Shown in pieces: positions 25,521 to 43,647 of a DNA stretch of 64,000 nucleotides. The translations under genes and the position numbers were made by a program. The stretch comes from an uncultured Planctomycetales bacterium. Its GTDB lineage: Bacteria; Omnitrophota; Gorgyraeia; Zapsychrales; JANLHA01. The first letter of the stretch is position 1; each line of letters opens with the position of its first letter. The stretch covers positions 5,977 to 69,976 of the forward strand of contig CAYVEC010000007.1 in NCBI GenBank assembly GCA_964450385.1, read 5' to 3'. Under the pieces are notes generated by a model, which did not search any database, was not told the origin of the DNA, and saw nothing but the letters and a program-made list of their open reading frames with translations.

Positions 25521-25597
25521 GGTCCGCGCGACCGCAGATTCAAAACCCTTGCCCCATCCCTTGAATGGTGGATAATAAGGATGCGGAGGGAAGTCCG

Positions 25598-26059
25598 ATG
25601 TCGATGGAAAAGCGGTTAAAAGCGGTCAGGGCCGGGGAATTGATGACACGTTTTGCCGTCACGGCCACCCCGGATCAGACGATCGTTGAGGTCGCGATGC
25701 TCCTCATGCGGTTTAAGATCAGTGGGGTCCCTGTTGTCGACGATGAGGAGGCGTTGATCGGGATCGTCACGGCCTCGGATCTGTTTGGCGTGATGGAGGG
25801 GATCATTGCCGATGTCGAGAAAGGCCGTGACCCCCGCGAGAGGTCCTGTCAGCTTGTCGGTGGCGTCATGACCCGGGCGGTTACCTGTGTTACCCCTGAG
25901 ACCTCGCTCTATGATCTTATCGGGCTGATGAACGATCAGAATATCCATACCCTTCCTGTTGTTGTTGACGGCAAGATCGAAGGCGTGGTCGGACGACGCG
26001 ACGTGATCAACGCCTGTTATCTCACCGTGGGCAGTCATTATTTTCATTCCGAACGATAA
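25598..26059 (+). CDS. CBS-pair domain protein
   Basis: Two CBS motifs (ISGVPVVDD..., IHTLPVVVDGKIEGVV). Confidence 0.75.
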   Translation: MSMEKRLKAVRAGELMTRFAVTATPDQTIVEVAMLLMRFKISGVPVVDDEEALIGIVTASDLFGVMEGIIADVEKGRDPRERSCQLVGGVMTRAVTCVTPETSLYDLIGLMNDQNIHTLPVVVDGKIEGVVGRRDVINACYLTVGSHYFHSER

Positions 26060-31354: not shown

Positions 31355-31605
31355 AGGAGTTATGTTATTTTTACGATCCTATGAGACCATACCACGGGTG
31401 GCTGGAAAAATCAACAGGGATCTCGACGATTTTTTGTGTGCGGCTGGAGTTTTTTAACTGACCGGGAATTAAAAATGTTGACAAAGTAAACATTATGTAT
31501 ACAATTTGGTAGTAACGTCGCATCATGATTTTATCGTGTTCACGCGATGGCGGTTTGTTAACGTTTTGTTTACATCACCATAAGAGTAGGCGCAGCGAGG
31601 GCGAT

Positions 31606-32067
31606 ATGTTCGGGACAAATCTGAAGAGAATTCGACAGAAGAAAAAACTCACCCAAAAAGATTTGGCCGGTAAACTCGGGGTCTCCCGCCAGGCGATCTG
31701 TCTGTGGGAGGCGAACAAGAGAGAACTTAAAGCATCTATTCTTAAAGATCTTGCACGGATTTTAGGTGTGAAGACTGAGGAACTTATGCGGGCAGAGTCA
31801 GGCGTGAACGGTAGCCGAATCCCTTTTGAGTGGATCGGCCCTGAGTCGCGCGAGGTCTTTTTGGTGGGGGATTTTACGGGATGGAAGCCGACGATCCCGT
31901 TGCGCAGGATGAAGAATGGAATCTGGCGGCGGAATGTGACCTTGCCTCGGCCTGGCCGGTATGAATATAAGTTTGTTGTTGATGGACAGTGGCAGATCGA
32001 CCCTAAAAATGCCGATACCATCCTTAATCAATTCGGCACATTGAATTCGGTGAAGGAGTTGACCTAA
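31606..32067 (+). CDS. XRE-family HTH regulator fused to a CBM48/AMPK-beta-type glycogen-binding domain
   Basis: N-terminal LKRIRQKKKLTQKDLAGKLGVSRQAICLWEANKR (HTH_3), C-terminal ...VFLVGDFTGWKP...RYEYKFVVDGQWQIDP... (CBM48/E-set). Confidence 0.7.
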   Translation: MFGTNLKRIRQKKKLTQKDLAGKLGVSRQAICLWEANKRELKASILKDLARILGVKTEELMRAESGVNGSRIPFEWIGPESREVFLVGDFTGWKPTIPLRRMKNGIWRRNVTLPRPGRYEYKFVVDGQWQIDPKNADTILNQFGTLNSVKELT

Positions 32068-32068
32068 G

Positions 32069-33226
32069 ATGCGGATCGCGTTGCTATCCTGGGAGGCGGT
32101 TCATTCGATCTATGTGGGAGGTGTGGCCTTTCATGTGACCGAACTCGCCTGCGCGTTACAGCGTAAGGGCCATGAGGTCCACGTCTTTACCCGGATGGGG
32201 AAACCTGATCATCCGCGTTATGAGCGGATCCATGGGGTTCATTATCATCGCTGTCCGTTCGGGGCGAATCTTGATTTTGTCGAAGAGATCCATAATATGT
32301 CCCGCGCCTTTTGCGATGCCTTCTTCTTTACTGAGGACAGGGTAGGCCACTTTGACGTGGTCCATGCCCATGACTGGCTCGCGGCGCCGGCCATGTATTG
32401 GATCAAACAGGGGCGCGGCAACCATACTGTTTTTACGATCCACTCGACCGAATACGGCCGCTGCGGAAATAATTTTTACGGCGGCAATTCCGAACGGATC
32501 CGTCATATTGAATGGAAGGCCTGTTATGAGGCCGACAGCGTGATCGCGGTCTCGCATTCGCTGAAGAACGAGGTGCAGTGGATCTACGGCGTTCCGGATT
32601 CGAAAGTGGATGTCGTCTACAACGGCATCGATTATCAAAAGTTTGATGGCTGGGTCGAGCCGGCCGCGGTGAAGAAGATGTATGATATCGGGCCGATGGA
32701 CCCGATGGTCCTTTTTGTCGGACGCATGGTCTATCAGAAGGGGGTCGACCTCCTGGTGAGCGCGATCCCGCATGTCTTGTCGTACTATCCGAATGCGAAG
32801 TTCGTCTTTGCCGGCGACGGAGAGATGCGCGGTCAGGTCGAGGAGCAGTCCGTGAGGATAGGGGTCAAACACGCCTGCCGGTTTTTGGGTCATGTCAACG
32901 GATGGCGCTTAAAGGATCTGTTTAAATCCACGGACTGTGTCTGTGTGCCGAGCCGGAACGAGCCGTTTGGGATCGTGATCCTTGAGGCCTGGAGCGCGGG
33001 CAAGCCTGTTGTGGCGAGCGCGAATGGCGGGCCCTCCGAGATCGTCTGGCATGAGATCAATGGACTTAAGATCGCGGACAATCCTGAGTCGATTGCCTGG
33101 GGGATCGGGTCATTGTTCGAGGATTTTGATGACGCCCGATGGATGGGCAGCAATGGACGGATTGCGGCTGAGTCGGTTTTTTCATGGGATATCATCGCGG
33201 ATGAGGTCGTTTCGATTTATGGGTAA
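32069..33226 (+). CDS. Archaeal-type glycogen (alpha-glucan) synthase, GT4/GT5-like
   Basis: MRIALLSWEAVHSIYVGGVAFHVTELACALQRKGHEVHVFT...HDW...FTIH...NGID...EPFGIVILEA matches the Pyrococcus-type GS signature. Confidence 0.6.
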   Translation: MRIALLSWEAVHSIYVGGVAFHVTELACALQRKGHEVHVFTRMGKPDHPRYERIHGVHYHRCPFGANLDFVEEIHNMSRAFCDAFFFTEDRVGHFDVVHAHDWLAAPAMYWIKQGRGNHTVFTIHSTEYGRCGNNFYGGNSERIRHIEWKACYEADSVIAVSHSLKNEVQWIYGVPDSKVDVVYNGIDYQKFDGWVEPAAVKKMYDIGPMDPMVLFVGRMVYQKGVDLLVSAIPHVLSYYPNAKFVFAGDGEMRGQVEEQSVRIGVKHACRFLGHVNGWRLKDLFKSTDCVCVPSRNEPFGIVILEAWSAGKPVVASANGGPSEIVWHEINGLKIADNPESIAWGIGSLFEDFDDARWMGSNGRIAAESVFSWDIIADEVVSIYG

Positions 33227-33244: not shown

Positions 33245-34606
33245 GTGGCAGAGCGAGCGAAGAAAAAGACAGCGGCAGTGAAGAAGGCTGCTACGACGAG
33301 GGTCAAGAGCGCGTCCAAAACGGTTCGGAAGTCTGAGGTCAAAAAGACGCCGGCCGCGGTAAAGGCAGCAGCCCGGCCGCGGAAGGCCTCGGCGATCGCG
33401 GCCGCGATGGCCACGGCCATTGATCGGATCGATCCGTCGAAGACGGCGGTGACGAACCCACGGCTGAACGGGATGATCCGTGAGAATCTCTCCCATGCCT
33501 CACGTGCACGCAAGGCAGTTTTCGTTGACAGCGAGATGATGCCGGACAATTATGGTTCAACAAGCATTACCCTTTTGGCGCGCGATCCCCACTGGGTCCA
33601 TGCCTATTGGGAGGTTGCTCCGGCCGCGGTGGGTGAGGCCTGCGCGCGTCTTGGTCTGGAGCAGGGGCACACTGCGTGGGTTCTGAGGATGTACGATGTG
33701 ACCCTGATCAACTTTAATGGCCAGAATGCCCATCATTGGTTCGATGTCGAGGTCGGTCCTGACGCGAATAATTGGTATGTAAATCTCTGGAGTGATCACG
33801 TCACTTATTGCGCGGAGATCGGGGTGAGGGCGCCGGACGGGCGTTTTGAAGCGCTCGCGCGTTCGAATGCTGTCACGACCCCGCGTGAATATATTTCTGC
33901 TCGGAACGAACTTGTCTGGATGGAGGTGGTGCAGCCTGAGGGTGAAGAGCCCGTGACCGCCGAACCATATGTCTACGCGAGCGGGAGCTGGGTTGAGGAT
34001 GAGGCGGAGGGGAAGGAAGGGGTTGCCGCGGCCCGACGGGGTAAGGGCCGGAGGTTCCGGATCTATCTTACGGAGGAGGACATCCGCGCCTATTATGCCC
34101 GGCTCTTTCCGCTGCTCCGGCGGATCTTGTCGCGACGGCGTCGAAAATCCACGCGAAAGACTATTGATACCGGCGATGCGGACCTGTTATTGGAAGAGCT
34201 CGAAGACATGGACCTGCCGGGGTACAGCTATTTTCGAAAAATACTCCTGGGCGCGTCCGAAGAGGCCTGGCTCCGCGGCCGCGGGCAGCGTGCCGGCCAG
34301 CCCGGCGGGGCGAGTGAGGAACTTGTTTCGTCCTGGACCACATCCCAGGCGCCGGCGAAGCCCGAGGGGTTTTTCTTCGAACTCGGGACCGAATTGATCG
34401 TTTACGGCCGGACCGAACCGGATGCCACGGTGACGTGGCACGGGCGGCCCGTGGCCCTTCGTCCCGACGGGACGTTTACCCTGCGGATGGCCCTGCCGAC
34501 CGATACGCACATTCCGTTGGATTTTAAAGCGGTTTCATTCAATCAGCGGCATCAGCGCCTGATCACGACCGCTGCTAACCGTGAGAAGACTGAATACGCG
34601 GAGTGA
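33245..34606 (+). CDS. DUF4912-like protein with N-terminal Lys/Ala-rich histone-H1-like tail
   Basis: N-terminus AKKKTAAVKKAATTRVKSASKTVRK...; core ...LLARDPHWVHAYWEV...; in operon with GH57 genes. Confidence 0.5.
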   Translation: MAERAKKKTAAVKKAATTRVKSASKTVRKSEVKKTPAAVKAAARPRKASAIAAAMATAIDRIDPSKTAVTNPRLNGMIRENLSHASRARKAVFVDSEMMPDNYGSTSITLLARDPHWVHAYWEVAPAAVGEACARLGLEQGHTAWVLRMYDVTLINFNGQNAHHWFDVEVGPDANNWYVNLWSDHVTYCAEIGVRAPDGRFEALARSNAVTTPREYISARNELVWMEVVQPEGEEPVTAEPYVYASGSWVEDEAEGKEGVAAARRGKGRRFRIYLTEEDIRAYYARLFPLLRRILSRRRRKSTRKTIDTGDADLLLEELEDMDLPGYSYFRKILLGASEEAWLRGRGQRAGQPGGASEELVSSWTTSQAPAKPEGFFFELGTELIVYGRTEPDATVTWHGRPVALRPDGTFTLRMALPTDTHIPLDFKAVSFNQRHQRLITTAANREKTEYAE

Positions 34607-34668: not shown

Positions 34669-36270
34669 ATGCCCAAAGGATATCTTGCGTTAGTCTTGCA
34701 CGCCCATCTGCCGTTTGTCCGTCATCCTGAGGAAGAGTATTTTCTCGAAGAGAATTGGTTGTACGAGGCCATTACCGAGACCTACATTCCCTTACTGCAC
34801 GTCTTTGATCAGTTGACCCGCGAGCGGGTTCGGTTCCGGGTGACGATGTCGCTCACGCCGCCGCTCATCAGCATGCTCCAGGACCCACTCCTTCAGGACC
34901 GGTATATTCGTCATCTCGACCGGCTGATCGAACTTTCAGAACGCGAGATTCATCGGACGGGATATGAGGCCCACTATCATGGTTTGGCCCTGATGTACAA
35001 TCACCGTTTTCGTGAATACAAAAAATATTTTGTTGATGGGGTCCAGCGGGATTTGATCGCGGCCTTTAAGTATTTTCAGGATGCCGGGGTCCTCGAGATC
35101 ATTACCTGCTGCGCGACCCACGGGTTTCTTCCGATCCTCGGTGTCAATCCGAAGGCCGCTGAGGCGCAGGTGAAGATCGCGGTTGAGCATTATAAAAAGA
35201 CGTTTGACCGTCAGCCGAGGGGGATCTGGCTGCCGGAATGTGGGTTTTTGCCCGGGGTGGATGAGATCGTGCGTGATGCCGGGGTCCGGTATTTCTTTGT
35301 GGATTCGCACGGGATCATTAACGCGGATCCGCGGCCGCGCTATAGTGTCTATGCCCCGCTCTATACCCCGGCGGGGGTCGCGGCCTTCGGCCGTGACTGG
35401 GAATCTTCGAAGCAGGTCTGGAGCGCGCAGGAGGGTTACCCCGGGGATGTGGATTATCGTGAGTATTACCGCGACATCGGGCATGAACTCGAGTATGAAT
35501 ATATCCGGCCGTTCATCCATCCGTCGGGGTTGCGGGTGAATACCGGGATGAAATACTGGCGCATCACCGGACGCACGGAATATAAGGAGGCGTACCGGCC
35601 GGACTGGGCCCGTCAGAAGGCGGCCCAGCATGCTGGGCATTTTATGTTCAATCGCGAGAAGCAGGTCGAACATGTGGCGGCCCACATGGACCGTAAGCCG
35701 ATCATTGTGGCCCCGTATGATGCCGAGCTTTATGGGCACTGGTGGTACGAGGGCCCGATGTTCCTTGATTTCTTGTTCCGTAAGATGCATTATGATCAGG
35801 ATACGGTGAAGACGATCACGCCGTCGGAATATCTGACCGAATATCCCACGAACCAGATGGCGATGCCGTCCACCTCAAGCTGGGGATATAAAGGATACAG
35901 TGAGTACTGGCTCGAGGGCGGCAATGACTGGATCTATCGGCATATCCATAAGGCCGGGGAACGGATGGTCGAGCTCGCCGGGAAATTCAAGGCCAAGCTG
36001 TCGCCGCGGAGCAAACCTTCGCTAGTCAAGCGGGCCTTGAACCAGGCGGCGCGGGAACTTCTCCTCGCTGAGGCAAGCGACTGGCCGTTCATCATGAAGT
36101 CCGGGACCATGGTCCCCTACGCCAACCGCCGGGTGCGGCTTCATATCGCGCGTTTCACCCGGCTGTATGATGATCTGTTGAAGAACACGATTGACGAGGA
36201 CTGGCTCGCCGAGGTGGAATGGCGGGACAATATTTTTTCTCAGATCGATTGCGCCAAATATTATCTCTAA
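34669..36270 (+). CDS. GH57-family 1,4-alpha-glucan branching enzyme
   Basis: N-terminus MPKGYLALVLHAHLPFVRHPE... and catalytic regions typical of GH57 GBE (Thermus/Thermococcus type); ~533 aa. Confidence 0.8.
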   Translation: MPKGYLALVLHAHLPFVRHPEEEYFLEENWLYEAITETYIPLLHVFDQLTRERVRFRVTMSLTPPLISMLQDPLLQDRYIRHLDRLIELSEREIHRTGYEAHYHGLALMYNHRFREYKKYFVDGVQRDLIAAFKYFQDAGVLEIITCCATHGFLPILGVNPKAAEAQVKIAVEHYKKTFDRQPRGIWLPECGFLPGVDEIVRDAGVRYFFVDSHGIINADPRPRYSVYAPLYTPAGVAAFGRDWESSKQVWSAQEGYPGDVDYREYYRDIGHELEYEYIRPFIHPSGLRVNTGMKYWRITGRTEYKEAYRPDWARQKAAQHAGHFMFNREKQVEHVAAHMDRKPIIVAPYDAELYGHWWYEGPMFLDFLFRKMHYDQDTVKTITPSEYLTEYPTNQMAMPSTSSWGYKGYSEYWLEGGNDWIYRHIHKAGERMVELAGKFKAKLSPRSKPSLVKRALNQAARELLLAEASDWPFIMKSGTMVPYANRRVRLHIARFTRLYDDLLKNTIDEDWLAEVEWRDNIFSQIDCAKYYL

Positions 36271-36291: not shown

Positions 36292-37719
36292 ATGAACGGG
36301 ATGCTGACGAACGGCCTGCCGGATATTTTTTTCACCGATGACGATGCCGCACGGCTGAGGCCGAACGCCGATTACGCGGCCTTCTCGAATCTCCGGCTTG
36401 CCGACGTTCAGGCGGCCTTCGGGATCGCGCTCCACATGCATCAGCCCACGATCCCCGCCGGCGGAGGGGCCCTTCATGAGGCGGCCCTGATCTCGAATCT
36501 GAAACACATGATGGACCATCAGGGGATCGGCGACAATCACAATGCCCCGGTCTTTCTTCATTGTTATTACCGGATGGGTGAGATTATTCCTGATCTTGTG
36601 GCCCGAGGCAGGAATCCGCGGGTCATGCTTGATTATTCAGGGAACCTCTTGTGGGGGATCCCGCAGATGGGAGAGACGGCTGCGGTCGAGACCCTGCGCC
36701 GGGTGACGTGCGACAAGAAATATTTTACCTATGTGGAGTGGCTCGGCACGATGTGGTCGCATGCGGTCGCGACCTCGACGCCGATCCCGGACCTTCGTCT
36801 TCATATCATGGCCTGGCGCCGGCATTTTGCCGCGCTGTTCGGCGAGGAGGCGGTGCGCCGGGTGAAAGGGTTCTCTCCGCCCGAGATGCATCTGCCGATC
36901 CATCCGGATCAGTGTTATGAATATATCAAGGCCTTAAAAGAGGCGGGATATGAATGGATGCTCGTTCAGGAGCACACGATCGAGAATGTGGATGGCGCCG
37001 GGATCCGCCGGCCGCATCTGCCGCATCGGCTGATCGCGAAGAATTCCTCCGGCGAGACCCAGGAGATCGTGGTCCTCATCAAGACGCAGGGGTCGGATAC
37101 GAAACTCGTGGCCCAGATGCAGCCCTATGCCGAGGCCAAGGGCCAGGTCCGGGAGGCCTATGCCGGGATCGATCTGCCCCGGATGGTCACCCAGATCGGT
37201 GACGGAGAGAACGGCGGCGTGATGATGAATGAGTTCCCCAGGGACTATCCGCGGGCCTTTGAAGAGGTCGGCCGGTCCGGGGTCGTGGCCATGAACGGAT
37301 CGGAATATCTCGATCATCTAAAAAAGGCAGGGGCCCGGGTTCAGGATTTTATTTCAGTTCAGCCCGTGGCCCAGCATCGCGTCTGGCACGAGATCGACGG
37401 TCATTATGGCCCCGGGGCCGCGGACGCGGCGATCGATCGGATCCGTCAGCGCGATCAGGGGTTTAATTTAGATCGTGCGTCGTGGACCTCCGACCGGAAC
37501 TGGGTCGCAGGTTATCAGGGCGTCTTGGGGCCGATCAACGCCCTGAGCGCCGCCTTTCATGCCCGTTATGACGGCAAGGCCGATGTCCGGTCAAGCGACT
37601 ATCAGCAGGCGCTCCTGTATCTTTTATTATCCCAGACGAGCTGTTTTCGGTATTGGGGCGAGGGGGCTTGGACGGATTATGCCAAGGAATTATGCCGCCG
37701 CGGCATGATTTTTTGCTGA
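36292..37719 (+). CDS. GH57-family-like alpha-glucan-active protein (HxHQP region)
   Basis: LHMHQP motif (GH57 region I); 475 aa; family call tentative. Confidence 0.5.
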   Translation: MNGMLTNGLPDIFFTDDDAARLRPNADYAAFSNLRLADVQAAFGIALHMHQPTIPAGGGALHEAALISNLKHMMDHQGIGDNHNAPVFLHCYYRMGEIIPDLVARGRNPRVMLDYSGNLLWGIPQMGETAAVETLRRVTCDKKYFTYVEWLGTMWSHAVATSTPIPDLRLHIMAWRRHFAALFGEEAVRRVKGFSPPEMHLPIHPDQCYEYIKALKEAGYEWMLVQEHTIENVDGAGIRRPHLPHRLIAKNSSGETQEIVVLIKTQGSDTKLVAQMQPYAEAKGQVREAYAGIDLPRMVTQIGDGENGGVMMNEFPRDYPRAFEEVGRSGVVAMNGSEYLDHLKKAGARVQDFISVQPVAQHRVWHEIDGHYGPGAADAAIDRIRQRDQGFNLDRASWTSDRNWVAGYQGVLGPINALSAAFHARYDGKADVRSSDYQQALLYLLLSQTSCFRYWGEGAWTDYAKELCRRGMIFC

Positions 37720-37917
37720 TTTTTTTATCCCTTCTGAAAATTTTTATATAAAATCCACAAACCATTGTGTTTTATGGGGTTATGCCTTCAAGAAAAGTTT
37801 GCGAAAGCGCTTTCTTTCATATATACTTTATAAGTACTAAATACTGATATTTGGAAGCCTTTGTGTGCCGCATTTCTCTACTCTTTTCAAATTTTATATC
37901 AAACGAAGGAGACAGGA

Positions 37918-40900
37918 ATGGTTTTGAGCCAGTACAAACAACGTCGGGGGTGTGTTTGTCGTGTGATCTCAGCGCTTCTTGTGGTTATCTTCTCTTCAAG
38001 TTTGATCCTTCCTCCATCCGTCGTTCAGGCTCAAATCATTCCAACATTGCCGCCGCCCGGGACCATGGTCATGGCGAGTCCGCATTTTGTTCCGGTCCTT
38101 TTAAAAGGGATTCAACCCGATCCGCAGAATCCGCTGCAATTCACCTTTTTTTTCAATACCGGTGATGTGAAGGAAAGCGACGAGGCCCTCCGGGCCGATA
38201 TCCTGCGGCTTATCCGATATTTTATGGCCGCGCTCACCGTGCCCGAGGATCAACTCTGGGTCAACCTCTCGCCGTATGAGGCGGGCCGGATCGTCTCCGA
38301 CTCCTTAGGCGCGACCGAGATGGGGATCGATCTCTTGGCGCAGGACTATATGTTGAAACAGCTCACCGCCAGCCTTTTATATCCAGAGAATGAACTCGGT
38401 CAGAAGTTCTGGAAGCGCGTTCAGCAGCAGGCACAGGCTCGGTTCGGCCGGTCCGATATTTCGCTTGAGGTTTTAAATAAGGTGTGGATCACGCCGAATG
38501 AGGCGGTTGTCTACGAACATAATGGCGCTGCGTATGTGGTGAAAAGCAGCCTGAAGGTTTTGTTGGAACAGGATTACATGGGCTTGGAGGCGAATTCATT
38601 ACAAGGGTCAGGGCCCAACGGGTCGTTGTCGAACGAAGGCCAGGCGATGTCCCCCGAGATGGTCTCCATTATAAAGGAAATCGTGATCCCTGAGATCGAG
38701 CGGGAGATCAATCAGGGCGAGACCTTTGCCCAGCTCCGTCAGGTCTATCAGTCGATGATCTTAGCGACCTGGTTTAAATTGAACCTTCGGCAGACCCTCC
38801 TGGGGCAGGTTTACGCGGATCAGCAGAAGGTGAAGGGAATTGACCTGGCGGATCCAGCGGCCCCGGAGGAGGTCTACAACCGCTATCTCGAGGGATTTCA
38901 AAAGGGCGTTTATGAATTTATCCGGGAGGATTATGACGAGGCCACGCATCGGGTGATCCCCAGGAAATATTTTTCAGGTGGTGTTGTTGTGCCGAAGGAT
39001 TTTAATCCTAAACGGATCACGGGCGAGCCTGCCACATTGTCTCCTGCCGACCGGGCGGTTGTTCGAGCGGGGCTGGCGTCCAACAATGGCGGAGACGGTA
39101 GCGCTCGGGTCGGGCTTGTTGAAAATGGAAATCCAGAGAGCCTTGAGGCGGCGAGGAGGCCAAAGGGCACAGACGGCGCGATGATCGCGTCACGGGTTGA
39201 TCTTACGATGCTAAATCCGCGAACCGAGAGTTCGGCGGTTGACCGGGCGCTCGTTCGGGCCGGGGGTGTCGTGGCCGGGGTCACCGCCTATGATGACCAG
39301 GGCCGGATCGCGGCGGCCCCGGTGTTAGTCGGCGATGATATTCAACAGAAGATGCAGGGCACGGCGATCATGATCGATGTCTCGATCGATCAAGGCGGCA
39401 ATATTCGACACCGATTGCCGGATGGTTTTAAATATTCTCATAGCACGCCCGCTGTAAAGAACCCGAATGGCCAGATCACCGAAGGGGTTCCGAATATGCT
39501 AGCGGCCATGGGTCAGCTCGCCACCCCGTATCTTTCCGAGGCGCGACAGCCGTATTTGATCGCCCTCATCAAGATGATCCAGGCCGTGCGTGACGGTCGG
39601 GAATTTTCAGCTGATGATGCGGTCCTGCGCACGGGATTAAAAAAAGGGTTCCGGTTCCTCGCGGGTGAGAATCTGGATGAGCAGGGCCTCTCACCGGAAG
39701 AGCTGGACCGAAAGATCCGCCAGGGCTTTGAACCGATCGCTGAGGGGCTACGGCGCGGGGCGACGTTGACGATTGGCGTGCCCGCCGAGATCCTCCAGGG
39801 GGAACGACGGTTCGGGATCACGCCGGTGATCGTTCAAGATCTTCAAGAACGATTCGGAGACGAGATCCAATTTAATGTGGAGCGCGGCGGCGGTGCCTTA
39901 AGCGAGATCAGCGATGGTGAATTTCCGTCGAGCGTTAATATGGTGTCTGCAGCCGGGGCTTGGAACAGCGATATTGTCTTAAAGATTAAGCAGCCTTTGT
40001 CAAATGAGCTTCACCGATTTCGCGAAGACGGAGTGATTTTTACCTATTATCATTTGGAGAACCGTTCGATCGCCGAGTCAGGATTAAAGGAGGCGCTCGT
40101 GGGCGCCAGGTCGTGTGCGATCGCCTATGAATCGGTGCGTGATGAGGCAGGCGGAACCCCGCTATTAAATCCGATGTCCCATATCGCCGGATGGCTTGCC
40201 TCGATGCGGTATGCCGTGTATCAGGGGCTGATCCGTGAGGGTTACGACCTGTTTAATGAGAGCGGGGTTCTTCGGTCTGAGGCCGTTAGTGAGATCAATC
40301 GCCGGCTCAAACCGATCATTGATTTTATTGCGGAAGGGGATCATTTTGACCGGCTTAAACGCCATGAATTGGTGATCACGCAAGACGTCCTCGCCGAGGC
40401 TGGTATCCCTCGTGATATTGGAGAGGTGGTGTTCCTCGGTGCGGGTCATGTGGGCCGAGAGGCTGCCCATATGTTTGTCCTGTTAGGTGGCATAAAGATG
40501 ACTGTCACCGAGACGAACCCGGCCCGTCAGGCCTCCTTGGCTGAAGACCTAAACAAGGTTGGAGATCGGGTCGCCCGTGATCACGGGATGCTGTCCCAAC
40601 AGTTCGAACTTGTGAGCGGGCCGATCCGTGTGGGGGCAGAGGATGATGTTCTTGCGTTCTATTTAAAAAATCGTGATAGCGCGGACCCCGCCCAATATAT
40701 CCTTGAAGTTGTGCCTCATGGCCGACGGGAGGGTCAATTTATTTTTAAATACGCTCTTCATCGTGTTAATGGTCACGCAACGGAGTGGAGATTGTCGAAG
40801 GAAGGGGCAGAGACTGCGACGGACATGTTCGGTATTGTAAGCCATGGGACCGATGAGGAACGGGACGCGCTGGCTGCGAGCTGGCCGCAGATCATTGATG

Positions 40901-43647
40901 AATTGGAACAGGCGAATGGGGGCAGGGTTCAAGTCCCGAGCGCTCGTGATGCCGGGATGATTAGCGCTCGGATCGGGCAGAAACAGGATATGAGTCTCCG
41001 CTTCGATGATCCTGTTTTGAATAAATTGATGAGGCGGGTCATCTCAGATAAAAGTGGTTTTGTGGTTTCGGATGTCTCGCTTGAGGCTATGCTGTCAGAG
41101 CTTGATCAAGACGGGCAGATCGCGCTCTTTCGTGGGGGGTTAGGGTTTTTGGCCGGAGAGACCTTCGGGGCGTATCGGAACGGGATCGGTGTCATGCCCT
41201 TGTACCATCAAAATTACAAGGGAAAACAAATTGATTGGCGTCATGAGAAGGGAATTCATGTCGTTACTGTTGATGGCAAAGAGTTAAAGTTGGCGGTTGA
41301 ACTGGCAGGGAAGACATATGAAACGACTGTTTTTTGGGTGAATCGAAAAGGCACTCCGGTCTTTTTGTTCGAGAATAAGGAGATCTTTCATCAGTTGTAT
41401 CCAGATCCGATGACCGGGGTCGAACGCATGCGTCAGTACGCGTTTTTGGGTAAGGCGTATGTAGCGCTGATGAATGCCTTGGAACTCAGGCCTGATATTT
41501 TGCGTCTTAATGAGGCTCAGCTGATGTTTGTTCAGCGCGCTATTGAGCTAGATCGTGCTGATAAAGGCGCCGACAGTGTGTTTGGTGGAACGCGGACGGT
41601 GATGACGAATCACACTCCAGAGAAGGCCGCATTGCCGAGGTTTTCACGGTACGTTGAAGGGGCGGGGCGGATGTGGTATCCCTTAGAAAAAGTGACGGGG
41701 ACCGATATGGTCTCATCTGATATGTTCGCCTCAGACGGCCAGATTAATGCCGCTGAATGGTTGGGACGGCGGTCGGTCTTGGTGACCGCGGTTTCAGAGG
41801 AACACGCGGAGGTGACGAAGCGTTTTGTCCTGCCGCAGTTGAGCGATCATATCACGGGGATCCAGAATGGATCTGATCCCGACGAGTGGCAGTCACCGGA
41901 ATTGAACGCCTTGATGAAGAAGGTCGGCCTTGAAGGTGTCACGGGTGAGGATCTGTGGCGTTTTCGGCAACAGCAGAAGACGCGGTTAAATGAGTGGCTG
42001 GCTCGTCACGGGGCCGGGGGATTTCATGATGTCAATCGTCCGTTATTTTCAGCAGTACGGCGATTGGTAACGTATAAAGCACAGGGGATCCTTGTTCCCT
42101 TGGTTGAGTGGATCACGGGAGATCCCGGGCGTGAGTATACGTTGCCGGATGGGAGCCGTCGCAATGGATTGGGTGCGAATCTCTTGGTCGGCGGTCCGGT
42201 AGCGGACACGATGGGCGAAGAATGGGCCCGGGAATTTAGGACATTGGCTCAGGATGAGCGGTTTCGAGGGAAGCTGGTTTTTGTAGAAGGGACCGGAAAA
42301 GAGATGATGCAGCTCGCGGCCTCTGCTCCGGACGGGTGGCTCGTGATGCCGCGTCTGACTCGTGAGGCGTCGGGGACCGGAGATCAACGGGCGGGGTTTA
42401 ATGGTGCGATCGTGATCGCGACCGCCACCGGCGGGCCGCTGGCGTGGGTGGAGGATGGAAAGAATGGCTGGCTGGTGGATCCGCTTGGGACCACAACGAC
42501 AAAGACACAAGACGGTGAATATGAACTCGGTGATGCGTTCAATCGCGTTGCCCTCATTTTGGATAATCCCGATCATCCGGAACACGCGGCTATCGTGGCC
42601 CGGTTTGAGCGTGAGGCTCAGGGGGTTTTTGCTGATCGGATGAGCCGGATCGTGATGATGTACCGGGCGTATGAGGCGGGGAGAGATAAGCGGATCTTGG
42701 GATTTATGAAGGGATCGTTTCAATCAGCCATGGAGAAGGTCTCCATTGACCGGATGATGAGTGACTATCAACGGTTGTTCCGTGAGGCGTTGAAACATGG
42801 GCAGACGAGCGACACCTTGGGCGCGGCGTCGTATGAGATCCAGCAGATCTCAGCGACTGAGGATGAGGAAAGGATCCGTCGATCTATTCAGCTGCTCAAG
42901 GATAGTTATGCGGGGCTCGCGGTCGATGGGAATCTTTCTCAATTGTTTAAAGGCCGGGGCCCGATTCGGGGAGTGATCCGCGATATTGCCGGGCAACCGC
43001 AAGTACAGGGCGGCGAAGAGGAGGCGCGGGTTGTGGTTGTGGCTGCGTGGCTCGTGGCCCATTTTGATCTTCGGTTATCAGCGGATGAATTCCGTATGCT
43101 GGTCCGCGGGATTATGACCCGTCAGGATCTTGGCGCCTTGATACGTTTTTCTCCTGAGATGCAGCGGCATTTTTATGAAGATGCCGAGAGCCTGCTCAAC
43201 GAGGTCATCCCCGGCGAGGAGAACATTGTCAAGGTTGAGGAGGGTTTCACGAGAGGAGAATCTCTGGCTCATATTTTGACACGGCAACGATTGGCCCGGT
43301 TGACATTGAAGCGGGCCTGGGCGAAGTTGCGGGCTCGCCACGAAACGCGTTCTGAAGGCACAACGCTGACCGAGCGATCGATTGATATTGACGTGCCTGC
43401 GGAGGGTCAGAAAACGGCCCCGGGTGGTATCGACCTTAATTCTGCGTATCTGGATCTGAAGATCGAACGCGATGGGCAGGGGGTTCCGCTCCCCATGTCT
43501 GAGCAGCCGGTGGATCTGATCCAACAGATCGAGGGGTTTGCCCCGGTCCTGATTGATATGACGCCGATCCCTGGGGTCTTGATGCTTTTAGGTATGGACC
43601 AGCAGGGCTCAGGAACGGTGGTGGGGCCGATGGCCAGGGCAGAGTAA
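37918..43647 (+). CDS. Giant (~1909 aa) secreted or membrane-anchored multidomain protein: unknown N-terminal region, AlaDH/PNT-family NAD(P)-binding module, GT35 alpha-glucan-phosphorylase-like domain, ~400-aa C-terminal extension
   Basis: Signal/anchor MVLSQ...ALLVVIFSSSLILPPSVVQAQ. AlaDH/PNT matches: IGVPAEIL...FGITP, FTYYHLE, IAYESV, LLNPMSHIAGWL, VVFLGAGHVGREAA. GT35 motifs: GGLGFLAGE, GVMPLY, TNHTPEKAALPRFS, EASGTGDQRAGFNG. Confidence 0.75.
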   Translation: MVLSQYKQRRGCVCRVISALLVVIFSSSLILPPSVVQAQIIPTLPPPGTMVMASPHFVPVLLKGIQPDPQNPLQFTFFFNTGDVKESDEALRADILRLIRYFMAALTVPEDQLWVNLSPYEAGRIVSDSLGATEMGIDLLAQDYMLKQLTASLLYPENELGQKFWKRVQQQAQARFGRSDISLEVLNKVWITPNEAVVYEHNGAAYVVKSSLKVLLEQDYMGLEANSLQGSGPNGSLSNEGQAMSPEMVSIIKEIVIPEIEREINQGETFAQLRQVYQSMILATWFKLNLRQTLLGQVYADQQKVKGIDLADPAAPEEVYNRYLEGFQKGVYEFIREDYDEATHRVIPRKYFSGGVVVPKDFNPKRITGEPATLSPADRAVVRAGLASNNGGDGSARVGLVENGNPESLEAARRPKGTDGAMIASRVDLTMLNPRTESSAVDRALVRAGGVVAGVTAYDDQGRIAAAPVLVGDDIQQKMQGTAIMIDVSIDQGGNIRHRLPDGFKYSHSTPAVKNPNGQITEGVPNMLAAMGQLATPYLSEARQPYLIALIKMIQAVRDGREFSADDAVLRTGLKKGFRFLAGENLDEQGLSPEELDRKIRQGFEPIAEGLRRGATLTIGVPAEILQGERRFGITPVIVQDLQERFGDEIQFNVERGGGALSEISDGEFPSSVNMVSAAGAWNSDIVLKIKQPLSNELHRFREDGVIFTYYHLENRSIAESGLKEALVGARSCAIAYESVRDEAGGTPLLNPMSHIAGWLASMRYAVYQGLIREGYDLFNESGVLRSEAVSEINRRLKPIIDFIAEGDHFDRLKRHELVITQDVLAEAGIPRDIGEVVFLGAGHVGREAAHMFVLLGGIKMTVTETNPARQASLAEDLNKVGDRVARDHGMLSQQFELVSGPIRVGAEDDVLAFYLKNRDSADPAQYILEVVPHGRREGQFIFKYALHRVNGHATEWRLSKEGAETATDMFGIVSHGTDEERDALAASWPQIIDELEQANGGRVQVPSARDAGMISARIGQKQDMSLRFDDPVLNKLMRRVISDKSGFVVSDVSLEAMLSELDQDGQIALFRGGLGFLAGETFGAYRNGIGVMPLYHQNYKGKQIDWRHEKGIHVVTVDGKELKLAVELAGKTYETTVFWVNRKGTPVFLFENKEIFHQLYPDPMTGVERMRQYAFLGKAYVALMNALELRPDILRLNEAQLMFVQRAIELDRADKGADSVFGGTRTVMTNHTPEKAALPRFSRYVEGAGRMWYPLEKVTGTDMVSSDMFASDGQINAAEWLGRRSVLVTAVSEEHAEVTKRFVLPQLSDHITGIQNGSDPDEWQSPELNALMKKVGLEGVTGEDLWRFRQQQKTRLNEWLARHGAGGFHDVNRPLFSAVRRLVTYKAQGILVPLVEWITGDPGREYTLPDGSRRNGLGANLLVGGPVADTMGEEWAREFRTLAQDERFRGKLVFVEGTGKEMMQLAASAPDGWLVMPRLTREASGTGDQRAGFNGAIVIATATGGPLAWVEDGKNGWLVDPLGTTTTKTQDGEYELGDAFNRVALILDNPDHPEHAAIVARFEREAQGVFADRMSRIVMMYRAYEAGRDKRILGFMKGSFQSAMEKVSIDRMMSDYQRLFREALKHGQTSDTLGAASYEIQQISATEDEERIRRSIQLLKDSYAGLAVDGNLSQLFKGRGPIRGVIRDIAGQPQVQGGEEEARVVVVAAWLVAHFDLRLSADEFRMLVRGIMTRQDLGALIRFSPEMQRHFYEDAESLLNEVIPGEENIVKVEEGFTRGESLAHILTRQRLARLTLKRAWAKLRARHETRSEGTTLTERSIDIDVPAEGQKTAPGGIDLNSAYLDLKIERDGQGVPLPMSEQPVDLIQQIEGFAPVLIDMTPIPGVLMLLGMDQQGSGTVVGPMARAE

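Follow-up and report, generated by a model that had tools for sequence, protein, structure and literature searches.

Introduction

The beta subunit of AMPK/SNF1 carries a carbohydrate-binding module (CBM; structures 1z0m and 4yef) that enables this regulator to sense glycogen (PMC2642990, PMC6274970). In AMPK beta1, glycogen binding is lost with the substitutions W100G and K126Q and reduced with W133L and G147R (PMC6274970). PhaR is an autoregulated repressor of phasin genes that binds to PHB granules. Its DNA-binding domain is paired with a granule-binding one, and the protein comes off its promoter once PHB granules form (PMC3079617). Two further groups of proteins are relevant here: the XRE/Cro-C1 repressors, including 434 Cro/CI, P22 C2, SinR, CylR2 and PezA, and the stand-alone bacterial CBM48 proteins of about 95 residues, which are annotated as 'isoamylase early set domain-containing protein'. 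Bacterial glycogen synthesis is regulated by metabolites that act allosterically on GlgC, as well as by global regulators, and we know of no factor that senses the glycogen polymer. CBMs are nevertheless used as sensing or targeting parts in other settings, namely in the RsgI anti-sigma factors of Clostridium thermocellum and in the plant CBM48 proteins PTST and SEX4. RsgI detects polysaccharide outside the cell, across the membrane, and its output runs through a sigma factor; PTST and SEX4 serve in targeting or as phosphatases; and to our knowledge none of the three binds DNA directly.

The whole 64-kb stretch of DNA analysed in this study (the window) encodes a protein of 153 residues in which an XRE-type helix-turn-helix (HTH) is fused to a CBM48. 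Its CBM has the same fold and the same glycogen-contact residues as that of AMPK beta. In contrast to AMPK beta, however, the protein is bacterial, its CBM is joined to a DNA-binding domain rather than to a kinase scaffold, and its output would be transcription rather than phosphorylation. Pfam detected no domain after the CBM, and the protein ends at residue 153; given that the C-terminal alpha/gamma-interaction region of AMPK beta is absent, we do not regard it as an AMPK beta orthologue. PhaR likewise combines a DNA-binding part and a storage-polymer-binding part in one protein, both of which are predicted in the present case. The Pfam and NCBIfam searches gave no PhaR-family match for the regulator, and the relation between the two is best seen as an analogy of mechanism only. 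PhaR is concerned with a polyester, PHB, and with granule coat (phasin) genes, whereas the present protein would be concerned with an alpha-glucan and with genes for polymer-synthesis enzymes.

With regard to the XRE/Cro-C1 repressors, the likeness extends to the five-helix HTH_3 domain, to the position of the gene as the first of the unit that it would regulate, and to a predicted palindromic operator in the range of 14-20 bp that overlaps its own promoter. The difference lies in the C-terminal partner, which is a CBM and not a dimerisation, peptidase, cupin or toxin-binding domain. The stand-alone CBM48 proteins belong to the same CBM family (45-55% identity) and, in some Omnitrophota and one Nitrospinota, occupy the first position of the same operon of GT4, DUF4912 and GH57 genes; unlike the fusion, they have no HTH, and their promoters do not contain the 17-bp motif described below.

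Results

Domain architecture and structural model

The initial annotation had assigned an XRE-family HTH to the N-terminal part of the protein and a glycogen-binding CBM48 to its C-terminal part. Both assignments were confirmed by Pfam, in each case above the curated cut-offs. HTH_3 (PF01381) matched residues 6-60 (E 6e-14, 52.2 bits, cut-off 23), the profile being covered end to end (1-55 of 55), and AMPK1_CBM (PF16561) matched residues 74-149 (E 1e-14, 55 bits, cut-off 26.8), with CBM_48 (PF02922) as a second match to the same half (29.3 bits, cut-off 22.4). The peptides that had been quoted for the two parts are present in the translation (Table 1). The NCBIfam matches, to XRE-repressor and GlgB N-terminal models, were all sub-threshold, and the protein is therefore a member of no named equivalog. 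A longer open reading frame from an ATG at 31525 is possible in the window alone, but was rejected: the homologues all start with M-(F/I/V)-G, a Shine-Dalgarno sequence directly precedes the start codon that we retained, and a conserved leader site lies within the extension. As the HTH starts at residue 2, leaving no signal-peptide-like N-terminus, the regulator is predicted to be cytoplasmic, as glycogen is.

Table 1. Coordinates of the regulator gene, its upstream elements and the operon genes in the window
Feature	Position	Strand	Remarks
Dyad AATGTT-N9-AACATT	31474-31494	+	right arm coincides with left half of site 1; left arm extends into -35 element
Sigma-70-type promoter	31478-31505	+	-35 TTGACA 31478-83, 16-nt spacer, -10 TACAAT 31500-05
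Candidate operator site 1, GTAAACATTATGTATAC	31486-31502	+	over promoter spacer and first -10 bases
Candidate operator site 2, GTTAACGTTTTGTTTAC	31557-31573	+	5' leader, 71 bp after site 1, 49 bp before ATG
Shine-Dalgarno GAGGG	31597-31601	+	4 nt 5' of start codon 31606; read off the sequence
XRE-CBM48 regulator gene	31606-32067	+	153 aa, single intact ORF; stop TAA at 32065-32067
XRE/Cro-C1 helix-turn-helix (aa 1-63)	31606-31794	+	recognition helix SRQAICLWE; HTH_3 52 bits; contains LTQKDLAGKLGVSRQAICLWE
Flexible linker (about aa 64-69)	31795-31812	+	low pLDDT
CBM48/AMPK-beta-type beta-sandwich (aa 70-153) and stop codon	31813-32067	+	AMPK1_CBM 55 bits; contains FLVGDFTGWKP...YEYKFVVDGQWQIDP
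GT4 glycosyltransferase, putative alpha-glucan synthase	32069-33226	+	Glycos_transf_1, Glyco_transf_4 and Glyco_transf_5 matches
DUF4912 protein, Lys/Ala-rich N-terminal tail	33245-34606	+	PF16258 126 bits
GH57 1,4-alpha-glucan branching enzyme	34669-36270	+	Glyco_hydro_57 and BE_C; NCBIfam branching-enzyme models 309-352 bits
GH57-like protein, 475 aa, last conserved operon gene	36292-37719	+	weak Glyco_hydro_57 match, 15.5 bits

An AlphaFold2 model of the protein, built on 31 homologues, showed a five-helix bundle (residues 2-61), a linker (61-70) and a beta-sandwich (70-152), with a mean pLDDT of 90.9 and a pTM of 0.55. The helices of the N-terminal domain, the second and third of which make up the HTH, span residues 2-12, 17-24, 28-35, 43-53 and 57-61 (pLDDT 87-96), and the pLDDT of the linker is about 60. 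Given the low pTM and the low linker pLDDT, the two domains are predicted to fold independently, with neither fixed packing nor contact between them. Profile matches of the HTH in the PDB were to CylR2, SinR, P22 C2 and PezA. For the CBM, the first match in a Foldseek search of the PDB was 1z0m, the glycogen-binding domain of AMPK beta1 (1z0m_C: target-normalised TM 0.91, rmsd 1.2 A over 83 columns, E 9e-9, 35% identity).

Both presumed binding surfaces contain invariant residues in the 31-sequence alignment. In the CBM, these are W93, K122, W129, G144 and N147, which align with W100, K126, W133, G147 and N150 of AMPK beta1, the register being that of a HMMER alignment to AMPK beta2 moved to beta1 numbering by counting along the human beta1 sequence. 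The CBM thus appears to keep every residue needed for glucan binding, and binding itself, which is a prediction, is in our view likely. In the HTH, the invariant residues S27, R28, Q29, A30, W34 and E35 lie in the recognition helix (pattern SRQAxxxWE). This invariance implies that all members of the family would read one conserved, specific DNA target, and we have good confidence in a DNA specificity of the regulator.

Conserved position at the head of a glucan operon

The gene had been described as heading an operon for a glucan synthase and a branching enzyme. Its position was found to be strictly conserved: the regulator is the first gene of the set encoding the GT4, the DUF4912 protein, the GH57 branching enzyme and the GH57-like protein at all 17 orthologous loci. 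In the window, the ATG of the GT4 gene begins one base after the regulator stop codon; the GT4 gene follows the regulator at 15 of the 17 loci and is missing at the other two. The DUF4912 gene is present at every locus whose sequence reaches that far, and orthologues of the GH57-like protein (60-75% identity) occupy the same position. The branching enzyme matches the NCBIfam models for such enzymes. The synthase part of the description has to be qualified. The GT4 scored 167 bits against the NCBIfam model glgA_Coryne, which is below the cut-off, and the role of GT4s that occur beside GH57 enzymes is described as unresolved in a review (PMC11046441). For these two reasons, the GT4 cannot be called a proven synthase, and we treat it as a putative alpha-glucan synthase only.

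The genes upstream of the operon vary among the 17 loci and include PMT, pilus genes, PFK, GH57-DUF3536 and CBS/PhoU; at several loci, an obvious terminator is located just 5' of the promoter. Given these unrelated neighbours and terminators, the glucan operon is probably a transcription unit of its own. One of the neighbours, a CBS-domain gene, was considered as a partner by analogy with AMPK gamma and was rejected, as it is adjacent at only five loci, travels with pstB/phoU, is missing at locus L094 and, in the window, is located at a distance of 5.5 kb. Two peculiarities were noted among the operon proteins. At locus L008, an extra stand-alone CBM48 gene is found right after the fusion, and Lys-rich stretches resembling histone H1 occur in the linker of the L008 homologue (P0043) and in the N-terminus of the DUF4912 protein.

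Promoter and candidate operator sites

The TTGACA-16-TACAAT promoter proposed upstream of the gene matches 11 of 12 consensus positions, and it withstood comparison, since TTGACA and a -10 element are present at the equivalent position at 17 of 17 loci. In an alignment of the orthologous upstream regions, the spacer is conserved in addition to the -35 and -10 elements, as GTnAACA-N3-TGTnnnC/A. This 17-mer appears again 40-92 bp further downstream, in a leader that is otherwise unconserved, so that the regulator gene is preceded by two copies of a 17-bp motif, GTTAACA-N3-TGTnnAC/CA. Its ideal form, found as site 2 of locus L001, is the palindrome GTTAAC(G/A)-N3-TGTTAAC. Site 1 is located upstream of the transcription start point, which is predicted near 31512 in the window, and site 2 downstream of it.

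When the window was scanned with a matrix built only from the other loci, site 1 (16.5 bits) and site 2 (16.1 bits) ranked first and second among 128,000 positions, and the next match scored 13.9. The other matches in the window (22052, 43935 and 44133; 14 bits or less) fall in AT-rich stretches of a sequence with 56% GC and were dismissed as background. Matches about 0.7 kb downstream, inside the GT4 gene of eight loci, were also set aside, as they coincide with a conserved coding motif, AAyAAyATGTGyCG (NNMCR). The spacer sequence that forms site 1 is conserved in 17 loci, although this conservation is partly confounded with an extended -10 element (TGn) and with the -10 element itself; site 1 is weak in L005 and L008. 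Site 2 was found at 14 of the 17 loci. A leave-one-out matrix derived from site 1 alone retrieved site 2 in the leader (Fisher combined p 1.8e-9, 13 loci), and at all four held-out loci, which were fetched later and had no part in training, both sites were among the top matches at the expected offsets. The distance between the two sites is close to integral helical turns (Rayleigh R 0.70, p about 0.001, uncorrected for phylogeny).

A dyad, AATGTT...AACATT, had initially been suggested to serve autoregulation. The dyad is present, and autoregulation as such is backed by the comparison of loci, but the conserved element is the 17-mer, which shares only the right arm of the dyad; the left arm is unconserved in the orthologous promoters. 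The dyad is thus specific to the window and was rejected as the operator. A conserved RNA element or attenuator in the leader was rejected as well. Rfam gave no match for such an element in the window, RNAalifold found 0 consensus pairs in the orthologous leaders, and single leaders, whose folds had z-scores between -2.7 and +1.6, did not show any hairpin consistently. A terminator-like leader hairpin is convincing at one locus only, L091. Given that the leader shows no consensus RNA fold and that site 1 precedes the predicted start point, the 17-bp motif is presumably read as DNA.

Extent, reality and origin of the fusion

It had been proposed to look for the same fusion in related genomes, and a word-indexed search retrieved about 50 clusters at 90% identity in which both domains lie in one ORF. 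The encoded proteins are 146-223 residues long, share 40-66% identity with the protein of the window and carry no database name other than 'helix-turn-helix domain-containing protein'. All the named sources are Candidatus Omnitrophota MAGs, except for one labelled Bathyarchaeia, which is a probable case of mis-binning. Among the GTDB species representatives, the full-length fusion was found in eight genomes, all of them Omnitrophota or 'uncultured Planctomycetales' bins. In an exhaustive profile search, only about six clusters at 50% identity matched end to end; the top-scoring matches were multi-CBM48 or multi-HTH repeat proteins, which are unrelated to the fusion and were discarded as family members. 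The fusion family is confined to uncultured Omnitrophota. In Velamenicoccus archaeovorus, whose complete genome represents this phylum, we found only a stand-alone CBM48 of 93 residues, outside a glucan context.

A joining of separate xre and cbm48 genes by a sequencing or assembly frameshift, or by a lost stop codon, had to be considered, all the more so as the fusion evidently derives from two adjacent genes and relatives retain an old ribosome-binding site and ATG within the linker. The single ORF is nevertheless uninterrupted in some 50 clusters, drawn from NCBI, JGI, ENA and Logan assemblies, and at 17 independent loci at 40-66% identity, and no stop codon was found in the linker at any of these loci. 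Since the fusion is conserved and the linkers are free of stops, a frameshift or misassembly was excluded, and an artefact of this kind is exceedingly improbable. The HTH is consequently not a separate gene, a doubt that had been raised initially.

With regard to the origin of the fusion, stand-alone CBM48 genes open with GGAGG, 5-8 nt, ATG and a Lys-rich tail. Each of the nine long-linker fusions has AAGGAGG-N3-9-ATG in frame within its linker, with a Lys-rich stretch after it, and the residues around this signal are otherwise unconserved. As the long-linker fusions keep a ribosome-binding site and an ATG that resemble the start of a stand-alone cbm48 gene, the fusion appears to have arisen by read-through from an upstream xre gene into a cbm48 gene. 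The retention of the ribosome-binding site over 40-50% divergence further suggests that a CBM48-only isoform may still be produced in the long-linker clade. The clade of the window (146-153 residues) has a linker shortened to about 8 residues and has lost the internal start signal; its members are committed fusions.

Operons headed by a CBM48 without the HTH

A tblastn search with the proteins of the window revealed five loci, four from Omnitrophota and one from Nitrospinota, at which the same GT4/DUF4912/GH57/GH57-like operon is headed by a stand-alone CBM48 without an HTH. These loci provide a natural control. The 17-bp motif is absent from the 350 bp scanned upstream of all five operons, even though promoters are present. 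The best upstream scores were 3.0-8.7 bits at the five HTH-less loci versus 10.6-19.6 bits at the 17 fusion loci, and the separation between the two groups is complete (Mann-Whitney p 3.8e-5). Because the motif is absent from these sister operons, it appears to travel with the HTH, and not with the operon or the promoter. In addition, the right half of the operator covaries with residue 33 in helix 3 of the HTH, L33 occurring with TGTATAC and M33 with TGTGnCA. As this co-variation reflects a single clade split and not repeated events, we consider it supportive only. From the HTH-less operons it is also evident that the CBM48 protein fulfils a function independent of transcription.

Discussion

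We propose that the fusion protein acts as a repressor of its own operon and that its activity is linked to how much alpha-glucan the cell contains, a reading that we hold with moderate confidence. The XRE HTH, presumably as a dimer, would recognise the 17-bp pseudo-palindrome GTTAACA-N3-TGTnnAC at two sites located about 70 bp apart on roughly the same face of the helix. Occupied sites would block RNA polymerase and thereby silence the regulator together with the co-transcribed genes for the GT4, the DUF4912 protein, the GH57 branching enzyme and the GH57-like protein. The regulation would be autoregulatory, because the regulator gene comes first in the unit whose promoter the protein is predicted to bind. 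The location of site 1 over the spacer and -10 element, that of site 2 past the start point and the near-consensus promoter all point to repression, which, within this reading, we regard as reasonably probable.

The CBM48 would bind glycogen or malto-oligosaccharide through a Trp/Lys/Trp/Asn platform like that of AMPK beta. As one chain carries both activities, joined by a short flexible linker, a partition of the protein between glucan and DNA would be the simplest consequence, and the available glucan would set the pool that is free to bind the operators. The coupling of glucan to DNA binding is, within the repressor reading, an even matter, and its sign could take either of two forms. Titration onto granules could lead to a PhaR-like de-repression; alternatively, multivalent glucan could cluster the protein, raise its avidity for the paired operators and produce a product feedback. 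Titration by glycogen would place a synthesis operon under positive feedback, an unusual arrangement.

It is also conceivable that the protein is bifunctional and does not signal at all: the CBM48 would be an ancestral glucan accessory that, for instance, recruits the branching enzyme or the GT4 to the polymer, and the HTH would only autoregulate its dosage. The five sister operons that begin with a stand-alone CBM48 of the same family fit this picture, as do the linker start signals of the nine long-linker fusions, from which a CBM48-only product may persist, and the extra CBM48 gene directly 3' of the fusion at L008. A protein that binds an abundant polymer and two operators will, however, be divided between the two if it cannot occupy both simultaneously, so that some coupling is hard to avoid. 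Moreover, in the clade of the window the internal start is lost and the linker is reduced to about 8 residues, a sign that selection acts on the covalent link itself. We therefore consider the absence of signalling unlikely, but more credible than the two alternatives that follow.

In one of these, the protein would have the same sites, but its binding would recruit or stabilise RNA polymerase, glucan or a maltodextrin primer turning the operon on. Activation by XRE-family proteins does occur, lambda CI at PRM being an example, and the two sites are in helical phase with each other. Nevertheless, a promoter that matches the consensus at 11 of 12 positions needs no activator, and a site over the spacer and -10 element combined with one past the start point corresponds to classical repressor positions; activation is accordingly a poor candidate. 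Two independent binding modules on a flexible linker could also form a tether by which glycogen granules are attached to the chromosome and so positioned or partitioned, in the way that PhaM acts on PHB granules, and the histone-H1-like stretches in the P0043/L008 linker and in the DUF4912 N-terminus are in line with such a role. The DNA signal is, however, sequence-specific and limited to the protein's own promoter and leader, no comparable site being present in the 64 kb, the sites are placed exactly for blocking transcription, and the invariance of the recognition helix speaks for a single, specific target. A tether is, in our estimation, slightly less probable still than activation.

The glucan-coupled repressor would function as a one-component regulator whose sensor domain is without precedent. 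In the literature searched, we found no prior description of an HTH-CBM48 protein or of any XRE-CBM pairing, no DUF4912 in this glucan context and no glycogen regulation in Omnitrophota. The protein may be the first regulator to read the glycogen store of the cell directly. In its boldest form, the proposal is that it is the first transcription factor in any organism to gauge a storage polysaccharide itself by means of a CBM, as a glycogen-titrated or glycogen-assembled repressor, and that in the long-linker relatives an HTH-less isoform competes for glucan and tunes the switch; this we put forward only tentatively, as somewhat doubtful. The hypothesis, which was reached by comparative inference, is sharp and cheap to test, given that a protein of 153 residues and a 17-bp site make the reading of glycogen at a promoter directly accessible in vitro and in E. 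coli.

If the proposal holds, it would establish a polymer-to-promoter feedback for glycogen, of a kind known only for PHB through PhaR, and would mean that CBM48 has been recruited independently as a sensing module for regulation in bacteria and in eukaryotic AMPK. The protein would also offer a compact part for glucan-responsive synthetic circuits. For the uncultured Omnitrophota, it would provide the first regulatory handle on their poorly understood GT4/DUF4912/GH57 glucan pathway.

Stand-alone CBM48 genes and a possible internal start in long-linker regulator homologues

In five of the loci compared, the GT4/DUF4912/GH57/GH57-like operon was found to be headed by a gene for a CBM48 protein that lacks a helix-turn-helix (HTH) domain; these proteins are about 95-110 aa long and Lys-rich at the N-terminus. 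Regulator homologues with a long linker between the HTH and CBM48 domains carry a related signal: an in-frame AAGGAGG Shine-Dalgarno sequence, located 3-9 nt 5' of an ATG within the linker, is kept in all nine of them (L005, L007, L008, L010, L014, L015, L016, L017 and L018), and the Lys-rich stretch that follows this ATG resembles the N-terminus of the stand-alone CBM48 proteins. This Shine-Dalgarno/ATG signal is absent from the short-linker clade to which the window's regulator belongs.

Lysine-rich segments are also observed elsewhere among the operon products. The DUF4912 protein of the window starts with such a tail, the Lys/Ala-rich tails of its orthologues in L009 and L092 match Pfam HC2, and the regulator homologue of L008 (P0043) has a Lys-rich linker of 60 aa. 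These tails and this linker hint at nucleic-acid or polyanion binding by the operon proteins.

Coordinates of the features discussed
Feature	Locus	Position	Strand	Remarks
CBS-pair gene	window	25565-26059	+	downstream of pstB and phoU
Weaker hairpin	window	31531-31550		z -0.8; same place as the L091 hairpin
Lys/Ala-rich, histone-H1/HC2-like tail	window	33245-33430		N-terminus of the DUF4912 protein
Giant ORF, 1928 aa	window	37861-43647	+	directly 3' of the glucan operon
Strong terminator-like hairpin	L091	2921-2949		GAGGGCUCA...UGAGCCCUUUUU; leader, between both operator sites
Stand-alone CBM48 operons	L040, L054, L064 (Omnitrophota), L078 (Nitrospinota)	around 8000
Stand-alone CBM48 operon	L079 (Omnitrophota)	around 2400
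Linker Shine-Dalgarno and ATG	long-linker loci	about codons 57-80 of the regulator gene

Operator-like matches, leader RNA and neighbouring genes

The operator matrix repeatedly matched, with 10-14 bits, a conserved coding motif of the GT4 gene, AAyAAyATGTGyCG, which encodes N-N-M-C-R. These matches, found in L005, L007, L008, L010, L014, L015, L016, L018, L040, L078 and L079, lie about 0.5-0.8 kb (in L008, about 1.3 kb) downstream of the first gene's start. As the motif is present in HTH-less operons too, it probably reflects coding conservation rather than an operator.

With regard to the leader, the L091 hairpin is predicted at -16 kcal/mol (z -2.7), and neither this hairpin nor its window counterpart is conserved across the loci compared. 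A search of the entire 64-kb window with Rfam returned no RNA family at the gathering threshold.

In L008, L009, L091, L092 and L093, the gene directly 5' of the HTH-CBM48 gene encodes a 150-aa CBS-pair protein; this pairing of CBS and CBM48 is reminiscent of the gamma and beta subunits of AMPK. The window contains a 50%-identical homologue, which is separated from the regulator by ~5.5 kb containing genes for a DtxR-like repressor, FeoB, GT2 and PMT. The adjacency may be mere synteny with the pst-phoU cluster.

In the giant ORF, aa 484-776 correspond to the AlaDh/PNT N- and C-domains and aa 1111-1317 to a Glyco_transf_5 domain of the starch-synthase type; the greater part of the ORF is without annotation. 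The operons of L001 and L003 are likewise followed by giant genes, of 1570 aa and >1673 aa respectively, the latter with UDPGP and NDK matches. The window ORF may itself be the genuine GT5 glucan synthase, joined to further modules. The + strand of the window is strongly G-rich (G 32.1% vs C 23.9% over 64 kb), and nearly all genes examined in the region from about 24 to 47 kb are encoded on it.

Implications for the glucan pathway

The linker Shine-Dalgarno/ATG could be a remnant of the fusion event, or else a functional internal start that would yield a CBM48-only isoform. Given that a stand-alone CBM48 gene occupies the first position of the same operon in five loci, we infer that CBM48 is an ancestral component of the GT4/DUF4912/GH57 glucan pathway, independent of the HTH, in which the stand-alone protein may act as a targeting factor.
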